Source: Planctomycetota bacterium (lineage in GTDB: Bacteria > Planctomycetota > Phycisphaerae > WQYP01). Taken from it: DNA of 64,000 nt. Each line of letters begins with the position of its first letter. The stretch's first letter is position 1. This document shows positions 5,885 through 64,000 of the stretch, in pieces. The position numbers were made by a program, and so were the translations under genes. The notes below the pieces were generated by a model. That model did no database searches. It was not told the origin of the DNA and worked only from the letters and a program-made list of their open reading frames with translations. Location of the stretch: contig JAKBMM010000009.1 of the NCBI GenBank assembly GCA_021831565.1, forward strand, positions 3,605 to 67,604, written 5' to 3'.

Positions 5885-6177
5885 GCTGAAAGACTTTACT
5901 TTTGCAGACCAATCGCCGCCTCAAGTCGTAGGCTGACCTCTGAGGCCGGCACCGCCGGTTATAGAGCAGTTCTCAAAAGCCGTGCCGGAATGGCCGGACA
6001 GTCCCGCGGATATCAGGCATCCTGCCAGTTACTTGAGTTGGGCAGTTTCATAGTCAGCCAATGGTCTGGGATCAGGACTATGGCGGCCCTGCCTGCCGGC
6101 GCAGGCAGGCGAAATTCCCTTTGTTTTGCCGCTTTTGCTCGTGAACGGTTACTGTTCCGGAAGACCAGCCGCATGGG

Positions 6178-9464: not shown

Positions 9465-9537
9465 TGCCCTCATGGGGATTCGAACCCCAGTTACAGGCGT
9501 GAAAAGCCCGTGTCCTAGGCCTCTAGACGATGAGGGC
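9465..9537 (-). tRNA. tRNA-Glu (anticodon UUC)
   Basis: Reverse complement folds as a 73-nt cloverleaf. Acceptor GCCCTCA/TGAGGGC. D-arm GTCT-AGAGGCCTA-GGAC. Anticodon stem CGGGC/GCCTG with loop TTTTCAC. T-arm TGGGG-TTCGAAT-CCCCA. Discriminator A. CCA is not encoded. Confidence 0.92.
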
Positions 9538-9645: not shown

Positions 9646-9812
9646 CTCTTATCAAGAGTGCCTGAGGGACGGGCCCGTCGACGGCACAGCAACCCATCTT
9701 CCCGGTATTCCGGCGCGCCGGGACCGGGAGAAGCGGGTGCTAATTCCCTCCCGCTCGCCATGCGATTCGGCAAACATGCCGCCACCGTGGCGATCCTGGG
9801 GATAGATAGGTG
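9646..9812 (+). promoter_or_regulatory. SAM-I (S-box) riboswitch aptamer
   Basis: CTCTTATCAAGAG-TGCCT-GAGGGACGGGCCCG-TCGA-CGGCACAGCAACC ... GGTGCTAATTCC matches the conserved S-box core. An extended P4-like hairpin spans 9747-9802. P1 closure is CTTATC (9648-9653) with GATAGG (9805-9810). Confidence 0.85.
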
Positions 9813-14970: not shown

Positions 14971-15056
14971 ACACCGCCGAGATCGCCGCACGCGCCGGCG
15001 GGATTTTAGCCGCGGCGCCGGCGCCGCGCGTAAATTCCGCGACTCAAACGATTGTG

Positions 15057-15350
15057 GTAACCGTTCACGCACCGGATGTTTTTGGCGCACGTCCCGGCGG
15101 GCATGGGTTTTCCCGGTGTGCCGGGACCGCCAATCACCGCGCCGCCCCAGTTATGCAGACGCGTGGTGGAAACCCGCGGCCGTTTTGCGATATTGGTGAC
15201 ACGGTCAGCAGGCTGACCCGTTAAACACCGTTTTCCTTGCGGTTACGGACGGCCGTGGATTTCCATCCACGGCTGCGGGGGAGGCGACCATAGGGCAGCC
15301 GCGAGGATCGCAATCCCGCGGCTGTTTTGTGCGCCGCCGTGAACGGTTAC
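15057..15350 (+). mobile_element. MITE-like repeat copy A (long form, 294 bp) with TIRs and a perfect 8-bp TSD
   Basis: Ends are GTAACCGTTCACG ... CGTGAACGGTTAC. It is flanked on both sides by CGATTGTG (15049-15056 and 15351-15358). The interior is rich in hairpins (CCGTGGATTTCCATCCACGG, CAGCCGCG...CGCGGCTG). No ORF is credible. Confidence 0.85.
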
Positions 15351-15428
15351 CGATTGTGCGCTGCGCCGCCACGCGAGAAGAACCGCCGGCGGCGGGATGG
15401 ACCCCTGCTAAAAAATTAGCGATGCCGC

Positions 15429-23111: not shown

Positions 23112-23404
23112 GTAACCGTTCACGGCGGCGCGCAAAACGGCCGCGGGATTGCGATCCTCGCGGCTGCTCTATAGTCGCCTCCCCCGCAGCCGTGGATGGA
23201 AATCCACGGCCGTCCGTAACCGCAAGGAAAACGGTGTTTAACGGGTCAGCCTGCTGACCGTGTCACCAATATCGCAAAACGGCCGCGTGATTCCACCACT
23301 CGGCTGCGTGACTGGGCGGCGCGGTGATTGGCGGTCCCGGCACACCGGGAAAACCCATGCCCGCCGGGACGTGCGCCAAAAACATCCGGTGCGTGAACGG
23401 TTAC
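23112..23404 (-). mobile_element. MITE-like repeat copy B (long form, 293 bp), inverted relative to copy A
   Basis: The reverse complement aligns end to end with copy A. By hand I count about 12-13 differences, mostly clustered in one ~30-nt patch. Same TIRs. No matching flanking duplication (CGGATGTT vs TCCAGGAC). Confidence 0.85.
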
Positions 23405-52783: not shown

Positions 52784-52817
52784 CGGCGGACCCCGCGCGT
52801 TGCAACGGTTGATAATG

Positions 52818-52969
52818 GGAACCGTTCACGCGCCGGTTGTTTTCCGCGTACGTCCCGGCGGGCGCGGATTTTCCCGCCGTGCCGGGACCGCCAACCACCG
52901 CGCCGCCCCGGCCCCGCGACCGCGTGGTGGAAACCCGCGGCCGTTTTCCGCGCCGCCGTGAACGGTTGC
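52818..52969 (+). mobile_element. MITE-like repeat copy C (short form, 152 bp)
   Basis: GGAACCGTTCACG ... CGTGAACGGTTGC ends. The interior matches the outer parts of copy A but lacks the central ~140 bp. The flanks TGATAATG and TGGTAATG match at 7 of 8 positions. Confidence 0.8.
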
Positions 52970-53017
52970 TGGTAATGTACCATGCGCCGCGATGAAAAAG
53001 AATCTGGAGAAAGCAAC

Positions 53018-53897: not shown

Positions 53898-54175
53898 GCC
53901 CGGAAAATTGCCGCGCCGGGACCGCCAATCACCGCGCCGCCCCCGCCACGCAGCCGCGTGGATCGCAATGCCGTGGCCGTTTTTCGTCCACCTCCGGGCG
54001 GCTTTTCACGGTCGTGGATGGTAATAGAGCGGTGGTTGGATTACGAGGCATGATGGTTTACGGTTACGGAAGGACGGCCGTGGATTTCCATCCACGGCTG
54101 CGGGGGGGGCGACCATGGAGCAGCCGCGGGGATCGCAATCCCGCGGCCGTTTTCCGCGCTCCCGTGAACGGTTAC
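53898..54175 (+). mobile_element. MITE-like repeat copy D (long form, left end degenerate or truncated)
   Basis: The right ~150 bp nearly matches copy A, including CCGTGGATTTCCATCCACGG and the terminal CGTGAACGGTTAC. The left TIR is absent. It ends 2 nt before the res stop codon. Confidence 0.75.
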
Positions 54176-54177
54176 CT

Positions 54178-57100
54178 TCATTGCACGCCTCCAGTGGGCG
54201 TAGATGCGGCTGGACAAACTGTTACCGACTCCATGAAGCTTTGAAAGTTGTCGGCCTTGGTGAACTGGACGCCGGAATTCAGCGCCGCGAAGTGCTTTTT
54301 GCCACAGTCGATTTTCGCCTGCTCAGTGGGCCGGATGGCGTCGGTGAATATGCTCCCCTTGGACTCCACCACGAAATAGAGCCGCTCCTGGCCATCCATC
54401 TCGACCAATACGGCCCAATCCGGGTGGTACTCGCCCAGGGGCGTCGCTATGGGGAACCAACTGGGTAGCTTGGCGTATACCTTCACCTGGCTGCTCAGCT
54501 CAAATTGACGGGCAAATTCGTGCTCCACCTCCGAATCGTACACCACTTGCTCATAAATAGATTTGGCGCTTTGGATCATGTTGGCGTTCAGGTACGCGGA
54601 AATTTCTTCCTTTTCAAAAAGTTCCTGCGCATAGAAATAGCCGTCGCCGATTTTCTCGTACTTGATGCCGTCGACAATGAACAAACGCATCACACGGATG
54701 ATGATCTGGGCGACGCTTTCGGCAAACTTCTGTGGATTGTTCTTGAACTCGTCCAACCGCCCGCTTTGCAGCAGGATTTCCACCAATGATCGCCGCGTCA
54801 GGTGGGTCTGTTCTTCCAGGTAGCTGATGATATCGGGCAACTGATAATCGCGGGCGTCGTAGACGTGAACGCTCTGCTCTATTTCTTTCATCTGCACGCC
54901 GCCGCGGTCGATTTGGGCCTGGCCCCGGCGGAAGACAAATCGGGCCTTGCCCACCGATGGCATGGCGGCGATTTCACTGGCGCATTTAGCGATCAGGGCG
55001 GCGCTGTCGAACTGGACGCGAAACGTGGTCTTGTACTTGATGCGGTCCCAAAGCTGCTTGAATTCTTCGCTCAGGTAGACACGCTTGTTGAGTGTCACCC
55101 GTTTGCGATCAGCGGCGTTCTGAATGTTGAGCCTGCCTGCCGCTTTCTTTAACGCCGCGAGTATCTGCGGAGCCTGCGGCGCCATGGCCGGGGGTATATC
55201 GACTGTACCCTCATTTAACGCTTTCCGCAGAGAGTCCTGGATTTTCCCCTTTTCATCAATATGGCCCAGCTTTTGCAAATGTTCGCATAGCTGCGCCGAC
55301 GCTTCCGCTCCCATGTATTGGGGTTTATCGCCCTCCATGGCAACCACAATGTTGGCAAACATGTGCTTCTCCACCACGCCGAAGCGGATTCCCTCCTCAG
55401 CCTCAATTTCCTTCTGCAACTGCCGGGCGAAATCTTCATAGGACTCGTTGGCCATCACCGTGAGCCGGTTAACCTCGAAGCCCTGCACCCGGTTGCCCTG
55501 CTGATCCACCGCAATGCGCAATCCCCGGCCAATCTCCTGGCGCTTGCGCATGACGGAGTTGGTTTCGTTTAGCGTGCATATCTGAAACACGTTGGGATTG
55601 TCCCAGCCTTCCTTCAAGGCCGAGTGCGAGAATATGAATTTGAGCCTGCTGTCAAAACTCAGCAGTTTTTCCTTGTCGCGCATGATAAGCTGGTAGGCGC
55701 TTTCATCCGCCTGCGTGCGCCCCTCGCCGGTGGAATCCTTGAGCACTTCCCGCCCGCCCTTCTTGTCCACGGCGAAATAACCATCGTGAACGCCCTGGGC
55801 ATTGGCCGGTGCGGCGCCGTCAAAAAGCTTGCGGTATTTGGGCCTCTGAATCGCCCGATCGTATTCTTCCTCAAACATCAGGGCATATTTGCCGGGCTTG
55901 GCGTTGCCCGTCTCATCATACACCCGATAGTTCGCCACGCGATCAATGAAGAACAGGCTGAGAACCTTGATTCCCCTGGGGTGCAGGGTCAATTCCTTCT
56001 CCAGATGCTCTTCAATGGTTTTGCGTATCTGCAGGCGCTTGTATTCGTCCTGATCCACCTCGCCGATGGCCTGGCCGACATAAACCGTCTCCGGCTTGCT
56101 GGTGAAGTTGATACACTCCTTGCCTGGCTCGCAGTAAATGTCCTGGACGATGTAACCTTCGTAAAACCCCCGTCCGCCGGAAATTTGCATCAGGTCGTCA
56201 CCCTGCCGGACGGTCTTCTTCTGGCGCTTAACCCCGCCGCGCCTCAATTGCACATCCAGTTCAATGCGGGCGGTAATGGGGCTGGCGGTGTTGTCCACGC
56301 CACAGAGCCTGATGTATGGTCGGTTGTGACTGTCGGCAACCTCAATGGAAGCGACTTCGATCTGCTTGACCAGTTTGCGCTCGTAGGCATCCACCGAATC
56401 GAGCCGGTACATCATGTTGTACTGGTCGACGTGTGTGGCCGAGTAACGCAGGGTGCAAAGCGGATTGAGCGACGCAATGGCCTTCTTGCTGGTTTCGGTG
56501 GTATCGACGCTCTGCGGCTCATCAATAATCACCATGGGATTGGTGGCGCGAATGAACTCGATGGGCCGGTTCCCGGCCATACGATCCTGCGGGCGGTGGA
56601 TGATGTTGGCTTTGTTTTCCTTTTCCGGATCATCGAAGCTTTTGCGGAAGGCGTCGATGTTGATAACCATAATCTGGATGCCGTCGCTGGTGGCGAAATT
56701 TCGCACCTGGCCCAGTTTCTGCGAGTCGTAGACGAAATAATCGAACGGGACGTTTTCATAAAGTCCCTTGAAATGCCCGGCGGTGATCGCCAGCGACTTG
56801 TGGACGCCCTCCTTGATGGCCACCGACGGCACCACGATGATAAATTTGGTAAAGCCATATTTCTGGTGCAGCTCGAAGATGGTGCGCAGATACACATAAG
56901 TTTTGCCCGTGCCGGTTTCCATCTCCACCGAAAAGTCCATCGATCCCAGCTTGTCCGCCGGCTTCAAGCCGTTGCGCATCTGGATGGCCTGGACGTTTTT
57001 AAGCAATTCATCATCCAGCAGCGTTAACCGGTTGCCGATGCCCAGATCATTCGGCCGCGCCCCGGCAAACAGGCCGCCGCTGTCTTCGTTTGTTTCCAGC

Positions 57101-57210
57101 GGCGCCACCGTGAAGTTGGACATGCAGGCCCGCTGGCCGTCGAAAATGTCCACGACAGAGCGGACGGCTTCAAGCTGGTAGTCGAGGTTGGAATCGAATT
57201 GGAGTTTCAC
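54178..57210 (-). CDS. res: Type III restriction enzyme Res subunit (SF2 helicase plus PD-(D/E)xK nuclease)
   Basis: Motif I METGTGKTYVY, motif II VIIDEPQS, and C-terminal nuclease YHPDWAVLVEMDG...YFVVESKG. Probable GTG start at 57210 (VKLQFDSNLDYQ) preceded by GGGAG. The track ORF starts at 57276. Confidence 0.9.
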   Translation of the reverse strand: MKLQFDSNLDYQLEAVRSVVDIFDGQRACMSNFTVAPLETNEDSGGLFAGARPNDLGIGNRLTLLDDELLKNVQAIQMRNGLKPADKLGSMDFSVEMETGTGKTYVYLRTIFELHQKYGFTKFIIVVPSVAIKEGVHKSLAITAGHFKGLYENVPFDYFVYDSQKLGQVRNFATSDGIQIMVINIDAFRKSFDDPEKENKANIIHRPQDRMAGNRPIEFIRATNPMVIIDEPQSVDTTETSKKAIASLNPLCTLRYSATHVDQYNMMYRLDSVDAYERKLVKQIEVASIEVADSHNRPYIRLCGVDNTASPITARIELDVQLRRGGVKRQKKTVRQGDDLMQISGGRGFYEGYIVQDIYCEPGKECINFTSKPETVYVGQAIGEVDQDEYKRLQIRKTIEEHLEKELTLHPRGIKVLSLFFIDRVANYRVYDETGNAKPGKYALMFEEEYDRAIQRPKYRKLFDGAAPANAQGVHDGYFAVDKKGGREVLKDSTGEGRTQADESAYQLIMRDKEKLLSFDSRLKFIFSHSALKEGWDNPNVFQICTLNETNSVMRKRQEIGRGLRIAVDQQGNRVQGFEVNRLTVMANESYEDFARQLQKEIEAEEGIRFGVVEKHMFANIVVAMEGDKPQYMGAEASAQLCEHLQKLGHIDEKGKIQDSLRKALNEGTVDIPPAMAPQAPQILAALKKAAGRLNIQNAADRKRVTLNKRVYLSEEFKQLWDRIKYKTTFRVQFDSAALIAKCASEIAAMPSVGKARFVFRRGQAQIDRGGVQMKEIEQSVHVYDARDYQLPDIISYLEEQTHLTRRSLVEILLQSGRLDEFKNNPQKFAESVAQIIIRVMRLFIVDGIKYEKIGDGYFYAQELFEKEEISAYLNANMIQSAKSIYEQVVYDSEVEHEFARQFELSSQVKVYAKLPSWFPIATPLGEYHPDWAVLVEMDGQERLYFVVESKGSIFTDAIRPTEQAKIDCGKKHFAALNSGVQFTKADNFQSFMESVTVCPAASTPTGGVQ

Positions 57211-57321
57211 GTGGCTCCCACAAGGATCTCGGCTTCCGCTAAAACCCGGCGTGCCACCTCCACACATCTGCGGCATAGCGCTGGTTCCGGCGGGCCATGT
57301 GGCACGACCGATGGCGTAGGA

Positions 57322-57630
57322 TCAATGCTCATAAACAACCTCGCCCTTTTTAATTTCCTCAAGGAACGAGCCATGCGCATCCACTGGACGAACAGGAATC
57401 ACATCCAGGGGAATGTGATCCGCCACAGGCCGCAGCAGTTTACGATATTTCAATGCCAGCGGCAGATATGTTTCATCGCTGTCCTGGAAAATCGCCACAT
57501 CGAGATCTTGCGGATCGTCGCTGGTCAGAAAAGATCCAAAGATCATCACTTTTCTCACTTCAGTCTGGCCTGCCAGGCACGCCGCCAATTCCCGCTTGAT
57601 TTTTCGCTTTTCGATTTCGGTAAGTTTCAT
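57322..57630 (-). CDS. Minimal nucleotidyltransferase (MNT-type, pol-beta superfamily)
   Basis: 102 aa. GS-x9-D-x-D motif VMIFGSFLTSDDPQDLDVAIF. Confidence 0.8.
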   Translation of the reverse strand: MKLTEIEKRKIKRELAACLAGQTEVRKVMIFGSFLTSDDPQDLDVAIFQDSDETYLPLALKYRKLLRPVADHIPLDVIPVRPVDAHGSFLEEIKKGEVVYEH

Positions 57631-57647
57631 GGCGTACTCCTTTTGGG

Positions 57648-59573
57648 CTATTCTAACCGCGAAAACTCCAGTGGGGGCGTCGCATTTGAAACAATATACG
57701 CCTGTTGGGGGTGGGCCGGGTTATTCGGATAGACGTACACGAGTTCGCCCCGGCGGATCATGGGGGTAAGGTGCGTTCGTGTTATATAGATTTGCTTACG
57801 GCCGAGGTAGCGTGCGATCTGCTCGGCTCTCAGGGGCTTCCAGGCGCACAAACGTCGGATGACCATCCGTAGCTCGGCTGGGCCGGCTCGCTGGCGCAGC
57901 CCTCGTACCACCTCGGCAAGCTCATCAGGTAAGCCCTCCGGGTTGCCGGGGAACCCAGTGGATGTTGCGGCCAACCCCTGCGCTTGCGCTTTAAGCGCAG
58001 GGGTTAACCCCTGCGCTTGCGCCTTAAGCGCAGGGGTTAACCCTTGCGCTTGCGGCTGTGACGGACCGGCCAAGGGCGCAGTTTCCGTCAACCGTGGCGT
58101 GGGCACGTAAAATGTGCCGGCGCTCTTTCCTTTTTGCTCCAACAGCCCCAAGACCCGGAGCCGTCTTAAATGCCCACTTGCAACCAGCGTCTCCACCCGG
58201 TTGATGTCCCTATAGGCGGCATTGTTAATCGCCCCAATTTCTCGCGCAAATACCAGCGCCTTTTGCTCATCCTCGGACAGCGCGGCGTCCGCAAATTGCC
58301 CCAACCAGCGTACATCCTCCTCGTTCAGGAAATGATGGAAGAGGAACGTGACAACAAAACAATCTTTCTGGCGATCCGACTCAAACGTCGGCGGGGTCAA
58401 ACTCGCCTGGGCCATGGATTCGCGCATCGCCCGAATACCGCTGCCTTTCGTTTCGGCGTAGCGGGTCTCGTGCAACACGGCGGCAATCTTTTCGTTCCGC
58501 GTAATCGATCCTGGTTCGCCCAGCCGCTCATCGGGCACCAGCGAATGCCCCGGATTGCGAACCTCCAGTCGATTCGCATACCGAATGATCTGAACCGGCG
58601 ATTTGTGCCGGTAACTCCGGTGCATCACGGCGTTGACCAAAGCTTCGCGGATCGCCGTACGCGGCACCAATGGAACATCCTGCCGGCGCACGCTATTGGC
58701 CGGTAGGTGGAATGCCTTGGGGATGTCGTCCAGCACTGTATTGAGCGCCCGCGGCAATGCGAGCATGATCGGATCGAGGATTTCCACCGTGTCAAACCGG
58801 CTTTCCGGATCGCGAACCCATTACCGTCCGGGCACGCGAATGTAATCCACCCGCATCAGTGGGAATACGCGGCGAATGGCTGCACGTTTTCCAAACAGCA
58901 ATACGCCTGCAACAGTGGGCAGAAGCTTGTCTCCGCGCCGGTCAGCGCCGCACAAACTCAGCAGTAATTCGTTATCGGCGTAGCCCAGTTCCGGCGCATT
59001 GGGGTTGGCTTCGGCCCGAATGCGCCGGTACTCTGCGATAGCCGCCGGGTCCAGGTCATCGAGAGCGCAGTTTTCAACAATGCTTTCGTCCAAGCTGCGA
59101 TGGTCACGCCCCTGATACAGAGCCTGCAAATCGTCATCCGTACAAACCTGATCCGTTGCGCCGATACGGCGAAATGATCCCCGCGGCAACCCCTTGCTCC
59201 GGAAATATACCGGCTTGTCATGTGCCGGCGCTTCCGGCACATGAACGACCAGCACGACCTTATTATCCGGACGAATTTCCGTTTCCACCTGCGGCCGCAC
59301 AGCAATATTGAATACACTGGAACATTGGCTGATCAGATCGGCCTGCACCTTGTCGGGCTGCGGCACGCCCACGACTTCATAGTCGGGGAACAACGCCTCA
59401 GACATACGCCGTACACCCAACAGAATGTATCCCCCGCCGCGCCCTGGTTCGTTGGACATGGCGCAGACGGTCTCCAGCAGTGAGTTTCCAACGTCCCGGC
59501 TGGTCTTTGCCTCAATCTCAACGGTTTCGTCCCCGTCGTGAAGACGCTTAAATAATTCTGCGAATGTCATCAT
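57648..59573 (-). pseudogene. AlbA_2 (Schlafen-like) plus HATPase_c_4 plus winged-helix protein, interrupted by one in-frame TAA
   Basis: ORFs 58821-59651 and 57648-58787 are in the same frame, separated only by TAA at 58821-58823. Read-through gives ...YIRVPGR*WVRDPESRFDTVEILDP... The N-terminal part has AlbA_2-like ETVEIEAKTS...CAMSNEPGRGGGYILLGV. The C-terminal part has HATPase_c_4-like EALVNAVMHRSY. Confidence 0.7.
57973..58055. repeat. 2.5 tandem copies of a 33-bp palindromic unit inside the AlbA_2/HATPase gene
   Basis: Unit AACCCCTGCGCTT-GCGC(T/C)TT-AAGCGCAGGGGTT has 13-nt arms and a 7-nt loop. Copies at 57973-58005 and 58006-58038, with a partial copy to 58055. It is in frame (11 codons) and encodes AQGLTPALKAQ repeats. 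Confidence 0.95.
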
Positions 59574-59660
59574 GTCGTCAGACTCTGGGTTATATCCTGA
59601 ACAATTCCGAATGCACTTTCCGCCAAAGCTGTGCTGTGCTTCGGCAAGCAACCATACCTT

Positions 59661-61691
59661 CTACAGCGCCCTGACGTCCTCAATGCCGTGCTGTTTTAGA
59701 ATCTGCACGGCGTTGGTCTTGAGTTCGTCGTTGTTGGCAAAACCGGCATCCTTGAACACCACGCGCATGCCGGGCGGAGTTTCCGGTTTGAATTCGTCCT
59801 TTAGCGCGGCGATCTGCTCAACCACCGGCAGAGTCATGTTCATGGCCAGGCAAACCACCAAGTTGCCGCCGCCGATGATGTGGACGGTTTTGCCGCCGAT
59901 CTCGCGTTTCTCAATGGGCAGGGTCAAGTCCAGACCGTATTTGAGAAGAATTTCGTAAAGCACGTCGGCTTCGCTGCGTTCGGGTTTGATCGGTTCGGTG
60001 ACGTTTAACAGCGAATGTTCAAGCTTATTGAAATCAGGGTCCCAGGTTTTAATATTGCTGGAAGCGAGTTTGAAAACTTTGAAGCCACGGTCAAGTTCAC
60101 GCGGAGCCGCGGAGTCCGCAGAGGAAAACAATGCTGGATTTTGCGTTTCCTTGGCGGTGGTTTTGGCATCTTCCTCGTTGAGTTTTTTAATGACCCGGCG
60201 GATGCGTTCCTTGCCAATGTCGGCGATGGTTTTGTAACCCGCCTTGAAGGCTTCGGAATTTTTATCACACGGTTCCGGCAGTTGAACCATGATGAATTTG
60301 CGGCTGCCGCCATCCTGTTTGTTCAGGTCGAGAACGGCGTGCGCGGTGGTGCAGGAACCGGAGAAAAAATCGAGGATGATTGCTCCTTTGTCGCCGGCGA
60401 ACTCAACTATTTTCTTCAGGACCGTTTCGTCTTTGGGATTCTCGAACCAGTCGCCGCCCAGTAATTCACGCAGACGCTTCGTGGCGGCTCGCCCATCCTG
60501 GTAAAAGACACTGTAGGGAACTTCCTCCTCGCGTTCGGCCAAATAGGATTTTATACAGGGGACGGAATCTTCGGTTTCACCGAAGTGAACACGGTCCTCT
60601 TTAATCCACTGCGCCATCTTAGCGGGGTCGCTGGTCATCCAACCCCGTGATGGGATTCGCACGGGCTTGCCGGTACTCGGGTGCAACACCTCATAATTTG
60701 GCCCGCCACCGCCGGGCCAGGAAATGTCGGCGGCAAAGTAGATTCCCCGCTGATCAACGCAACAGTAATGGCGATGGGCCTTTGCCGCGTGGGTTTCAGG
60801 GAGGCCGGCAAACCATTGTTTGAGTCCATTTTCCACCGCCTTGTTGTCCGCCCTGTACGCCTTCCTTAGACGAGCGTAGGCGGCGTAAATTTCGTCCAAT
60901 CCGCCTTTGCGTTGCCGCCAGATGATGTCATTCTCCCGCAGGTGCTCCACGTCCCGCACGTAGGCAAGAATATACTCGTGCGATACAGAAATATATTTCG
61001 AATCGTTTTTACGGCCTGCGGACCAGACCATGTCGGCAATGAAGTTCTCCTCGCCCAAGACCTCATCGGCAAGCTTGCGCAGGTTGGGATGCTCGGTTTC
61101 GTCAATCGAAATGAAAATCACGCCGTCATCGCGCAGCAGATTTCTGGCCAGTTTCAGGCGGGGATACATCATGTTGAGCCAATCGGTGTGGTAGCGGCCT
61201 GATGTTTCCGCATTGGTGGAAAGCTTGCGGCCTTCGGTGTCGGTTTGGCCGGTCAGTTCCATGTAATTCTTGATGCTGTCGCGGAAGTTGTCCGGGTAAA
61301 TGAACTCCTTGCCGGTGTTGTACGGCGGGTCGATGTAAATCATCTTGATCTTTTTATAGTACGACTTCTGGAGCAGTTTGAGCACCTCCAGATTGTCGCC
61401 TTCGATGAACAGATTTTGCGTGGTGTCCCAATTGACCGATTCGTCCGGGCAGGGACGTAGAGTGCCCATACTGGGCGTCTGGGCAATCCGGCGGGCCTGG
61501 GATTTGCCGTTCCAGGTGAAGCTGTAGCGTTCGTTGGCATCGTCCACGTATTCGCCGAGAAGCTGCTTGAGCGCGTCAAAATCAATCTTCCCTTCGGCAA
61601 ACACTTCCGGAAAAATCTCTTTGAGTCGAGCGATATTTTCCGCCAGGATGTCCTTGGAGCCGCCGTCGGTGGTGGGAGAGAGTTTTTGCAT
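59661..61691 (-). CDS. mod: Type III R-M Mod subunit (beta-class N6-adenine DNA methyltransferase)
   Basis: Motif IV IYIDPPYNTG precedes motif I ILDFFSGSCTTAHAV. N-terminus ...ILAENIARLKEIFPEVF is typical of Mod. Start taken at MQKLS (61691). Confidence 0.9.
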   Translation of the reverse strand: MQKLSPTTDGGSKDILAENIARLKEIFPEVFAEGKIDFDALKQLLGEYVDDANERYSFTWNGKSQARRIAQTPSMGTLRPCPDESVNWDTTQNLFIEGDNLEVLKLLQKSYYKKIKMIYIDPPYNTGKEFIYPDNFRDSIKNYMELTGQTDTEGRKLSTNAETSGRYHTDWLNMMYPRLKLARNLLRDDGVIFISIDETEHPNLRKLADEVLGEENFIADMVWSAGRKNDSKYISVSHEYILAYVRDVEHLRENDIIWRQRKGGLDEIYAAYARLRKAYRADNKAVENGLKQWFAGLPETHAAKAHRHYCCVDQRGIYFAADISWPGGGGPNYEVLHPSTGKPVRIPSRGWMTSDPAKMAQWIKEDRVHFGETEDSVPCIKSYLAEREEEVPYSVFYQDGRAATKRLRELLGGDWFENPKDETVLKKIVEFAGDKGAIILDFFSGSCTTAHAVLDLNKQDGGSRKFIMVQLPEPCDKNSEAFKAGYKTIADIGKERIRRVIKKLNEEDAKTTAKETQNPALFSSADSAAPRELDRGFKVFKLASSNIKTWDPDFNKLEHSLLNVTEPIKPERSEADVLYEILLKYGLDLTLPIEKREIGGKTVHIIGGGNLVVCLAMNMTLPVVEQIAALKDEFKPETPPGMRVVFKDAGFANNDELKTNAVQILKQHGIEDVRAL

Positions 61692-62127
61692 AAGCGTTTC
61701 CCGATAATGCGACGCATCCAACCGCCGAGGCGCCGCGGGCGCAGAGGGGAAAGGGCAACAGCCGGAGCCGTCATGATCCCCGGCTATCCCGGCAATCCAC
61801 CGCCACTACTCCGCCGGCGGCCCAGCTTGGGGAAAATGATACCGCGATTCAAGGGCGGATGCATTGTACCGCAGGCCCGCCCGCCCTCACCACACACTCA
61901 AACTACACCCACGAAACGCCGTGGGCATCTCCCCGCCGTCCACAAGCTTCCGAGTTAGGCTGGAGAATAGGGCGATGGTGCCGGAAGCGCGTTCATTTGC
62001 GGATCGGCGGCGATTTCGTTTTTAACCATTTCCCGCGCAATGTATTTGATAATGAGGAGGGCTGCCTCGCAATATTCAACGTCGCTGTATTCGTCGGCAA
62101 CAAGGGACGGCCCGATTTTGAAGGGGG
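61648..62127. repeat. Direct repeat copy 1 (~480 bp): mod 5' end, 263-nt leader and 3' end of the upstream ORF
   Basis: Aligns with 62816-63299 (offset 1168-1172). Near-identical through the mod start and leader. More diverged in the upstream-gene part (protein level ...PSL(V/I)AD...DVE.CEAA...IKYIAREMVKNEIAADPQMNALPAPSP). Confidence 0.85.
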
Positions 62128-62188
62128 CCAGGTATGGCGTCGCGCCGTGACATAACCCGCTCTGCGGCGCACGATCAAAAAATGCCAT
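61955..62188 (-). CDS. Short ORF, truncated paralog of the C-terminus of the 63127-64000 gene
   Basis: 77 aa from ATG 62188. The last ~55 aa are homologous to the C-terminus of the HEPN-like protein but lack its RNAIAH motif. The start overlaps the stop of the preceding small ORF by 14 nt. Confidence 0.4.
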   Translation of the reverse strand: MAFFDRAPQSGLCHGATPYLAPFKIGPSLVADEYSDVEYCEAALLIIKYIAREMVKNEIAADPQMNALPAPSPYSPA

Positions 62189-62333
62189 GGTGGATGAGGC
62201 TGCGCAGCAGCGCCTCAAGCTTCGCGAGTTGACCGGGCCTGACCCTGCCGCCCAGCGTAAAATCATCCGCTGGGATAAGAATATCGCCGGATTGCGTGTC
62301 GATCCAAGGATATTCCGGGTTGGGATTCTCCAT
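62175..62333 (-). CDS. Small hypothetical ORF (52 aa)
   Basis: MENPNPEYPWIDTQSGDILIPADDFTLGGRVRPGQLAKLEALLRSLIHHGIF. Codon third positions look more GC-rich than in the overlapping frame. It may instead be the frameshifted 3' part of the 62263-62730 ORF. Confidence 0.3.
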   Translation of the reverse strand: MENPNPEYPWIDTQSGDILIPADDFTLGGRVRPGQLAKLEALLRSLIHHGIF

Positions 62334-62730
62334 GCGCGCCGCACTTGGCGCAAAGGCCACCAGCAAGCTCCTTCGCCTTCCGCCATGTCCCCCAGCCCTT
62401 GGGGAGCTGAAGCTGGCCGAACTCCTCCGGACGGATCAGGGCGATGGCAGAGGGAAACCGGAGTTTGTTCTGCGGCGAGGGACCGAACCGATAGGGGTGA
62501 ATCTCACCGTCCGGGCTGGTGGGAATTTCGGAGGTCAATTCCAGTAATCGCACTTCCTTATCGGCGGGGAACCAATATACGGTGGTAATTGAAGGATCGG
62601 CCTCCTGATTGTCCTTCACCAACATTCGGGCTTGATCTTCAATTTTATTTCTTCGTGGCACGGCTTTTAACTTCCCGGCGCTTGCCGTCGAATACATCCG
62701 CCCCCGCCCATTGCGCTTCAGGTTTACCAT
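62263..62730 (-). CDS. Hypothetical ORF driven by the second copy of the mod leader
   Basis: 155-aa ORF. The central part (DPSITTVYWFPADKEVRLLELTSEIPTSPDGEIHPYRFGPSP...) looks protein-like. The last ~35 codons have AT-rich third positions and overlap the 62175-62333 ORF. Confidence 0.35.
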   Translation of the reverse strand: MVNLKRNGRGRMYSTASAGKLKAVPRRNKIEDQARMLVKDNQEADPSITTVYWFPADKEVRLLELTSEIPTSPDGEIHPYRFGPSPQNKLRFPSAIALIRPEEFGQLQLPKGWGTWRKAKELAGGLCAKCGAHGESQPGISLDRHAIRRYSYPSG

Positions 62731-62815
62731 ATTGTAGCGCCTCTACCGGAAGAAATAGCCTGTGGAATATGTTAGCCCGCCGGCGTGGTGGCGGCAAGCA
62801 TTTCCTGGGAGCCGC

Positions 62816-63299
62816 ATGTCCTGGGAGCCGCCGTCGGTGGTGGAGGTGAGTTTTTGCATAAGCGTTTCCCGATAATGCGACGCATCCAACCGCCGAGGAC
62901 GCCGCGGGCGCAGAGGGGAAAGGACAACAGCCGGAGCCGTCGTCATGTCCCCGGCTATCCCGGCTATCCACCGCCACCGCCGCGCCGGCGGCCCAGCTTG
63001 GGGAAAATGATACCGCGATTCAAGGGCGGATGCATTGTACCGCAGGCCCGCCCACCCTCACCAAACACCCAACCTGCACCCACGAAACGCCGTGGGGCAT
63101 CTCCCCGCCGTCCACGAGCTTCCGAGTTAGGCTGGAAAACAGGGCGATGGTGCCGGAAGCGCGTTCATTTGCGGATCGGCGGCGATTTCGTTTTTAACCA
63201 TTTCCCGCGCAATGTATTTGATAACGGGGATGGCCGCCTCGCATTTTTCTACATCAGCGCACTGGTCGGCTATAAGCGACGGCTCGGTTTGGAAGGGAT
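62816..63299. repeat. Direct repeat copy 2 (~480 bp), containing a truncated mod 5' fragment
   Basis: Carries ATGCAAAAACTC... (MQKLTSTTDGGS). It then diverges from mod after about 12 codons and terminates at 62743. The leader and upstream-gene 3' end are as in copy 1. Confidence 0.85.
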
Positions 63300-64000
63300 C
63301 GATGTGGGCGATGGCATTGCGAGCGGTTTCCCTAAAACCATCACACACATCCGTGAATTTTTTACCGAGATAGGGCGCGAACGCTTCCTCATCGAGCGAA
63401 TATCCGGTGTAGGTATGCGGGATTCTCTCCGGCGGCGTGTGCGGAAGCCTGCCGGCAGCTTTTTCGCGCCTGCAACGGACGGCCCGTATCTTTCCAACTG
63501 CCTCGACCACTTTATAAAAGCAAAGGAATTGGAAGAAAATGTTGTTTGAGGAGAGCGCTTCCCGATAGGACGAAAATATCTGGCGCCAAATTGGTGTTAA
63601 TGGCCACAGCTTTGTTATGCCAATTTCTATGACTTTTGGCTTTCCGAGACACCCGACAATCAGCCTTATCGATTTCGTTCTCTCTTCTGTGATGTGGCAA
63701 GCCATGACGCCGATGCCAACGTCTTGGGAATAGCTCCACCAGCTCAATTGAGGCAAGACGAGGTTGTAAGCGGTACGGTAGGCTTCTTGGAAATTGGCGG
63801 CCTGTACTGTCATATCGGCGTGCGAGATTTCATTTGCGTCATTCGTTCCGAACAAAATGGATGCCGCCCGAGTTGAGCTTCTCGGGTCGAGGCAGAGATC
63901 GACACGCATGCCGCCATCGGGCGGAACCGCGGCTTTCAGTGGGGACTTGCCCAAATCGGGTATTTTCACCACGTCGATTGTGGAAAAGAATTCTTCTTGG
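63127..64000 (-). CDS. HEPN-like protein (RNxxxH motif), 5' end may lie beyond the window
   Basis: The frame is open to the window edge (GTG at 63972 is the first start seen). Helical C-terminal half with FFQFLCFYKVVEAVGK and FRETARNAIAHIDP (R-N-x3-H, the HEPN active-site pattern). Confidence 0.5.
   Translation of the reverse strand, partial: QEEFFSTIDVVKIPDLGKSPLKAAVPPDGGMRVDLCLDPRSSTRAASILFGTNDANEISHADMTVQAANFQEAYRTAYNLVLPQLSWWSYSQDVGIGVMACHITEERTKSIRLIVGCLGKPKVIEIGITKLWPLTPIWRQIFSSYREALSSNNIFFQFLCFYKVVEAVGKIRAVRCRREKAAGRLPHTPPERIPHTYTGYSLDEEAFAPYLGKKFTDVCDGFRETARNAIAHIDPFQTEPSLIADQCADVEKCEAAIPVIKYIAREMVKNEIAADPQMNALPAPSPCFPA

Follow-up and report, generated by a model that had tools for sequence, protein, structure and literature searches.

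Evidence for a modular, abundant and lineage-specific MITE family in an uncultured Phycisphaerae (Planctomycetota) bacterium

We describe a family of short repeats that is, with high probability, a family of non-autonomous DNA transposons (MITEs) in an uncultured bacterium of the Phycisphaerae (Planctomycetota). The family was proposed in an initial annotation of a 64,000-nucleotide stretch of this organism's DNA, hereafter the window, which had only the letters to go by. The MITE reading is upheld by empty insertion sites in related organisms, by a high copy number read from assembly depth, and by termini that are consistent over nine aligned copies; together with the target-site duplications and the modular build, these observations support transposition of the family. 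A genuine MITE family that is modular, abundant and lineage-specific is well supported, and it represents a kind of element that is already known. MAGs assembled from mine-drainage and sediment metagenomes include contigs that contain the window, one being the 112-kb contig DAHWML010000005.1 of GCA_027343245.1; GCA_027429175.1 is another MAG of this species. The nearest named relatives of its hydrolase and of the histidyl-tRNA synthetase (HisRS) encoded nearby are Phycisphaerae (Planctomycetota) MAGs.

Termini and insertion sites

Copy A, the long-form member from which the family was defined (Table 1), was first described as a 294-bp element with 13-bp inverted repeats and a perfect 8-bp duplication, and this description was confirmed at 15057-15350. 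The site reads ...CAAA CGATTGTG / GTAACCGTTCACG ... CGTGAACGGTTAC / CGATTGTG CGCT..., with terminal repeats that are perfect over 13 bp and complementary over those 13 bp only. The flanks are identical at 8/8 positions (chance of an exact match, 4^-8 = 1.5e-5), and Logan contigs end precisely at 15057 and 15350, the borders of the copy. Allowing two mismatches or fewer, the window contains 12 instances of the 13-mer terminus where 1.19 are expected, and 0/100 shuffles reached that count. The element had also been called non-coding and rich in strong hairpins, and both points held up: stops are present in all six frames, a protein database search with the longest open stretch returned no relatives, and the predicted minimum free energy of -168 kcal/mol corresponds to z = -8.1 on the + strand and z = -6.3 on the - strand relative to shuffled controls. 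At gathering score Rfam has nothing in the MITE, the only matches in the window being a tRNA and a SAM riboswitch located elsewhere. The latter (9646-9771, +; 44.6 bits, just over the gathering score) lies upstream of a PALP-domain gene that is followed by ThiS, NIL and ThiF genes, and adjoins a tRNA-Glu(TTC) at 9465-9537 (-).

Table 1. Positions in the window of copy A, its parts and the other members of the family
Feature	Position	Strand	Remarks
Copy A, composite (long-form) MITE	15057..15350	+	294 bp; from sequence and repeats, aligned with 8 other copies
Left 8-bp target-site duplication of copy A	15049..15056	.	CGATTGTG
Right 8-bp target-site duplication of copy A	15351..15358	.	CGATTGTG
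Left terminal inverted repeat of copy A	15057..15069	+	GTAACCGTTCACG
Right terminal inverted repeat of copy A	15338..15350	-	CGTGAACGGTTAC on the + strand
L-arm of copy A	15057..15189	+	Homologue of the short form's left ~131 bp
M2 of copy A	15190..15239	+	49-50 nt hairpin, then GTTTTCC; contig breaks at 15237/15239
M3 + R-end of copy A	15240..15350	+	Second right half; two hairpins; ends in the right repeat
Copy B, long form	23112..23404	-	293 bp; BLASTN of the unit against the window; about 96-96.6% identical to A
Copy C, short-form MITE	52818..52969	+	152 bp; between divergent Dus and hydrolase genes
Left duplication of copy C	52810..52817	.	TGATAATG, one change from TGGTAATG
Right duplication of copy C	52970..52977	.	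TGGTAATG; single in the sister species
Copy D, left-truncated D-type long form	~53910..54175	+	Other middle module + M3 + R-end
Solo right terminus	6140..6152	-	CGTGAACGGTTAC; degenerate R-end-like stretch before it; single-copy DNA

The insertion of copy C can be read directly from a sister species. In the MAG GCA_021790475.1, where the gene order is the same and the hydrolase is 85% identical to that of the window, the Dus-hydrolase spacer is 74 nt long and holds a single TGGTAATG, reading ...CAACGGT TGGTAATG TACCATGCG... The corresponding spacer of the window reads ...CAACGGT TGATAATG (152-bp copy C) TGGTAATG TACCATGCG... and measures 234 nt, which is exactly 74 + 152 + 8. The two duplication copies match at 7/8 positions, and in a Logan contig of this same relative (run X16) the alignment picks up exactly at 52970, the first base past the element. 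The sister-species locus is a textbook empty site that fixes the length of the duplication at 8 bp. The evidence at copy A is weaker. An 87-nt X16 contig aligns to 15005-15049 and then reads AACCTCGCGCTACGCAACCGCGCGGAG, that is, seven diverged bases after which 13 of the first 17 bases match the right flank CGCTGCGCCGCCACGCGAG; this alignment suggests that the copy A site is empty in the X16 relative.

A third insertion, copy E, has altered the end of a gene. This 317-bp copy (L010 16691-17007) lies about 3.4 kb left of the window between the flanks GCCGGTCC and GCCGGGTCC, an 8-bp repeat with one extra G. Its right terminus (L010 17004-17007, about 3.7 kb left of the window start), G/TAA, supplies the stop codon of HisRS and replaces a predicted four-residue tail (SRER). 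Removing copy E and one repeat in silico restores an ORF ending ...LDPASRER, with a stop codon that shares bases with the stop of the convergent NYN-domain gene. A relative with a HisRS of 78% identity has no element at this site, and its two convergent stop codons are separated by 3 nt. No empty allele was found at the HisRS site within the species, 5/5 cluster members having the truncated 469-aa form.

Exact or near-exact 8-bp duplications thus surround A, C and E, and three of the six complete copies have no recognisable duplication: copy B (flanks ..GGATGTT / TCCAGGAC..), copy H (L030 4430-4743) and the copy of the sister species in L001. The initial annotation is corrected in that B is without a duplication and D without a left end. 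Copies A, B, E, H, G and L001 have GTAACCGTTCACG at each of their two ends, and in copy C each end differs by a single change. Inverted termini are conserved in all types of the element, which span 152-322 bp. Every copy lies between genes or at the end of one, in mixed orientations and beside convergent, divergent or tandem genes. The solo terminus at 6140-6152 is probably a decayed remnant; the idea that it ends a larger repeat was rejected because the DNA around it is single-copy. A second solo terminus is present at L006 602-614 and is followed by unique sequence.

Modular build of the short and long forms

The builds of the different types were read from the alignment of nine copies. The short form (C and the L001 copy; 152-162 bp) consists of a left arm joined to a right end; in copy A the L-arm contains the hairpin GTCCCGGC...GCCGGGAC as well as a box, GGAAACCCGCGGCCGTTTTG. 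The E/H type (314-317 bp) contains a complete short form with a degenerate right terminus (CGTGAACGGTT-TA), followed by TATTTTTA, the M2 module (TTGGTGACACGGTCAGCAGGCTGACCCGTTAAACACCGTTTTCCTTG), and M3 + R-end. The A/B type (294 bp) has the E/H build minus 24 bp, a segment that includes the internal terminus, and copies A and B have the same internal junction. In the D type, complete at 322 bp in L019, another middle module replaces M2. The D-type long form has M3 + R-end as well, and right halves of this kind are also found standing alone. The common A/B junction at two loci, together with duplications around the whole of A and E, indicates that the composite, the 294-bp form included, moved as one block with the outer repeats as its ends. 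The modular build proposed earlier is supported, but its borders do not lie exactly at the GGT(G/T)AC motifs; they are at 15189/15190 and 15239/15240, where contigs break.

We propose the following scenario for the origin of these forms. The basic unit is the short form of ~152 bp, with its 13-bp inverted repeats GTAACCGTTCACG and GC-rich hairpins inside. A transposase encoded elsewhere would bind both termini and insert the element at a staggered 8-bp cut, the repair of which would leave the 8-bp duplication. An E/H-type ancestor of 314-317 bp combined a complete short form with M2, a hairpin module of 49 nt in its own right, and with another right half; a 24-bp deletion with loss of the internal terminus then gave rise to A and B. 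The composite spread as a unit via its outer termini, and the family expanded to the order of 100 or more copies after the lineage split, the insertions examined here having since become fixed.

M2 also occurs apart from the MITE. It is present alone ten times in an 18.6-kb related metagenome contig (L002/L003; for example L003 2914-3097), where one site has a pair and another three copies in tandem with a period of 68-69 bp, and, in other contexts, two metatranscriptome contigs of 833 and 421 nt include it at depth 60-74. Short repeat modules made up of runs of GAAAGTAGAG(C) and GAACATTTCACCGCC.AGACGC... were seen near MITE copies (L006 360-420; L030 4350-4429; several L002 sites), and several small-repeat families seem to be interleaved in this genome. 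The MITE termini could conceivably act as a carrier that picks up and spreads independent hairpin modules (M2, the D-type middle module and right halves), seeding structured RNA, terminator or insulator modules over the whole genome. We consider such a role quite improbable. If it were true, M2 would be an expressed and separately mobile unit, found solo, in tandem and in abundant transcripts, and the excess of right ends described below would reflect a one-ended or module-wise spread of a sort not described for IS66-type elements.

Abundance and history in the host lineage

The depth of words in Logan contigs allows the family to be counted against its surroundings. Flanking single-copy DNA is covered about 10x, the left terminus 230-265x, the middle of the left arm about 1000-1400x, and the last 35 bp of the right end about 2300-2500x. 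Word depths of ~25x to 250x single copy imply that a genome equivalent contains left ends numbering in the tens and right ends numbering about 100-250, figures that are approximate and to which related organisms in the samples may contribute. Right ends exceed left ends several-fold (3-10-fold), so many members are half elements that are unable to move by a two-ended reaction. Contigs split into many unrelated flanks exactly at the termini, with 15-18 different contigs after 52967, and a direct count gives seven copies in about 92 kb of DNA of this species. The high genomic copy number first extrapolated from four copies in 64 kb is borne out by both the depth ratios and this count.

Scans for the right-end pattern in collections that leave out the source MAGs returned one locus among genome contigs and one contig among metagenome contigs; a scan of viral contigs gave 0 matches, and plasmid BLAST had no match to the MITE. 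In the sister species, one exact pattern match was found in the whole MAG, the short L001 copy is at single-copy depth, and 20.7 kb of syntenic DNA contains no copy, which leaves one or a few copies only. This scarcity in the sister species points to a lineage-specific burst: the family, at the order of 100 or more copies, expanded after the split from the sister species. The five insertions examined are present in every examined assembly of this species, with no presence/absence polymorphism seen among about 20 assemblies, and are now fixed. The element had been called active-looking, a description that is only partly supported: these assemblies show no polymorphic site, three complete copies of six have no duplication, and there is no evidence of current activity.

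Repeats of this kind leave their mark on assembly. Public assemblies and MAGs of the species disagree on which gene neighbourhoods flank one and the same MITE copy: L006 (7390-8067) links NuoB to BlaI, L032/L033 link HisRS to NuoB, and other flank pairings occur in L019 (5327-5726) and L031 (4393-5008). Either true recombination or chimeric assembly over a 300-bp repeat may lie behind these hybrid pairings, and the resulting ambiguity might account for some of the missing duplications. We rejected the hybrid flanks in L006, L019, L031, L032 and L033 as proof of recombination because chimeric assembly across the repeat explains them equally well.

Copy D is located where synteny with the sister species stops and a restriction-modification/defence island starts. 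This defence-type island (window 54176-64000 and beyond, in L016) encodes a Res-like helicase/endonuclease, a Polbeta nucleotidyltransferase, SLFN_AlbA_2/HATPase_c_4, an N6_N4 methyltransferase, MauJ and EMARD_N, and this relative has DUF1573 genes at the same position. Within the island is a 482-bp direct duplication (91% identity; 61648-62125 and 62816-63297) that is unrelated to the MITE. An imperfect palindrome of about 60-70 bp (57973-58051; 83-88% self-complementary) is located in the 57648-58787 ORF region.

Driving enzyme, rival readings and significance

The inverted termini and the fixed 8-bp duplication lead us to infer a DDE-type transposase acting in trans. The window had been said to contain no transposase, and Pfam-labelled gene calls over its whole length, about 15 kb on the left and 3 kb on the right agree. 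No transposase or larger element with MITE termini was found in about 100 kb of DNA, and a search for a parent IS through contigs that diverge inside the arms found only family variants. The identity of the enzyme can be approached through the termini. IS66-family elements make 8-bp direct repeats and have inverted repeats of 20-30 bp starting GTAAGCG (GTAA...) (PMC11946415); ISDge4 of Deinococcus geothermalis, from the ISBst12 group of IS66, has the terminus GTAACTGCTCAGCA and an 8-bp repeat (PMC12898284). The ISDge4 end is identical to GTAACCGTTCACGC of the MITE at 9/14 positions, both reading GTAAC and having ..TCA.. at positions 9-11. The family is like IS66/ISBst12 in its 8-bp repeat and GTAAC terminus, a relatedness that lies in a short motif only, and unlike it in having a repeat of 13 bp rather than 20-30 bp and no transposase gene; the MITE repeat begins GTAACCG and departs from the IS66 consensus GTAAGCG from position 5 onward. 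These likenesses make an IS66/ISBst12-like enzyme the most likely driver, tentatively so, since the repeats are only 13 bp long and no transposase was found, and we do not file the element as a member. The IS66 link raised earlier is thus a reasonable lead and not a demonstrated membership.

It is also quite possible that a non-IS66 enzyme drives the family, either ISLre2-like or another 8-bp-duplicating DDE transposase (ISL3, IS256, IS1595, IS6 and others). As far as we know, GTAA is not how ISL3, IS6 and IS256 termini begin. On pHTA426, a homologue of ISGka4, placed in the ISLre2 family in PMC8024623 and labelled IS66-like by NCBI, has ends of GT(A/T)(A/T)CTATTCAGCCC that match the MITE terminus at 10/14 positions, so that an ISLre2-type end matches as well as the ISDge4 end does. 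The reading of the 13-bp repeat as GTAACCG and not the GTAAGCG of IS66 (PMC11946415) is in keeping with such an enzyme, and the roughly 100 kb searched holds no transposase to decide the matter. ISLre2/ISGka4, however, gives 9-bp repeats (PMC8024623), against the exactly 8 bp of the empty site described here, and the GTAAC...TCA pattern together with an 8-bp repeat agrees with ISDge4 of the ISBst12 group (PMC12898284).

Two further readings question transposition itself, or its sufficiency. The strongly modular mosaic, with M2 occurring singly, in tandem (period 68-69 bp) and beside other repeat modules, recalls REP/BIME-like palindromic units, for which recombination or a tyrosine (HUH) transposase of the RAYT type would be the means of spread, with no staggered-cut transposition; the excess of right ends, the lack of a duplication at half of the complete copies, and the different flanks that different assemblies pair across MITE copies would also fit. 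We nonetheless regard this explanation as very improbable. It does not account for the 8-bp duplications at A, C and E, for the exact 74 + 152 + 8 = 234 of the copy C empty site, or for the inverted termini conserved in all MITE types, and the annotated neighbourhoods contain no RAYT-like gene. HUH transposases, as far as we know, make no target duplications. REP sequences are described as palindromes of 20-40 bp tagged GTAG or CGTC, free of target duplication and associated with a RAYT gene (PMC3733652), and the MITE termini have no GTAG/CGTC tag. A selective explanation, by which the long form is retained because it serves the host in termination, insulation or as a small RNA and spread by selection rather than by selfish transposition alone, is unlikely, though conceivable for individual modules. 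Its very strong structure (z = -8.1), the T-runs after several hairpins (CAGCCGCG..CGCGGCTGTTTTG; M2 + GTTTTCC), the placement of all copies between genes or at gene ends, the two metatranscriptome contigs with M2 at depth 60-74, and the fixation of insertions in the population would suit a host function. The element lies in either orientation in convergent, divergent and tandem gene settings, however; a terminator scan had no match inside it, nor did Rfam, and the sister species is without the element at the same sites. In three small metatranscriptomes from one study, neither the MITE arms nor the flanking genes were represented by any contig and M2 was the only part seen, a result that says little about the MITE.

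A non-autonomous transposon family remains the preferred reading, and it has good precedents. The family resembles the bacterial MITEs Correia/NEMIS of Neisseria, RUP of S. pneumoniae, Nezha of cyanobacteria, MITEAba12, and MITECca01 of Cardinium, which are likewise 70-300 bp long, non-coding, bordered by inverted repeats and target duplications, present in tens to hundreds of copies, mostly intergenic, and expanded in lineage-specific bursts. It differs in its short repeats (13 bp), its several composite forms and its excess of right halves, and the parent IS is known for MITECca01 (IS982) and RUP (IS630) whereas none was found for this family in about 100 kb. BOX of Streptococcus pneumoniae and the BIMEs of enterobacteria combine interchangeable end modules with a tandem-repeatable middle hairpin, and are intergenic and give structured RNA. 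The present elements are as modular, structured and intergenic, but they have true inverted repeats, 8-bp duplications and an empty site, and no sequence similarity to BOX or BIMEs. MITECca01 reaches 169 copies in one strain (PMC9769881); by definition MITE terminal repeats are 15-30 bp (PMC3733652), and those described here fall slightly below at 13 bp.

Our literature search found no report of a MITE in Planctomycetota, and the family reveals no new kind of mechanism. It provides a MITE burst with clean empty-site proof in the Phycisphaerae, in a phylum for which we found no such reports. The repeats explain breaks and mis-joins in MAGs of this organism, and the hybrid flank joins matter to users of these MAGs. 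The effects on genes are small: copy E gives HisRS its stop codon, and copy C splits a 74-nt divergent promoter region. The terminus GTAACCGTTCACG is a concrete handle for finding the transposase that moved the family.
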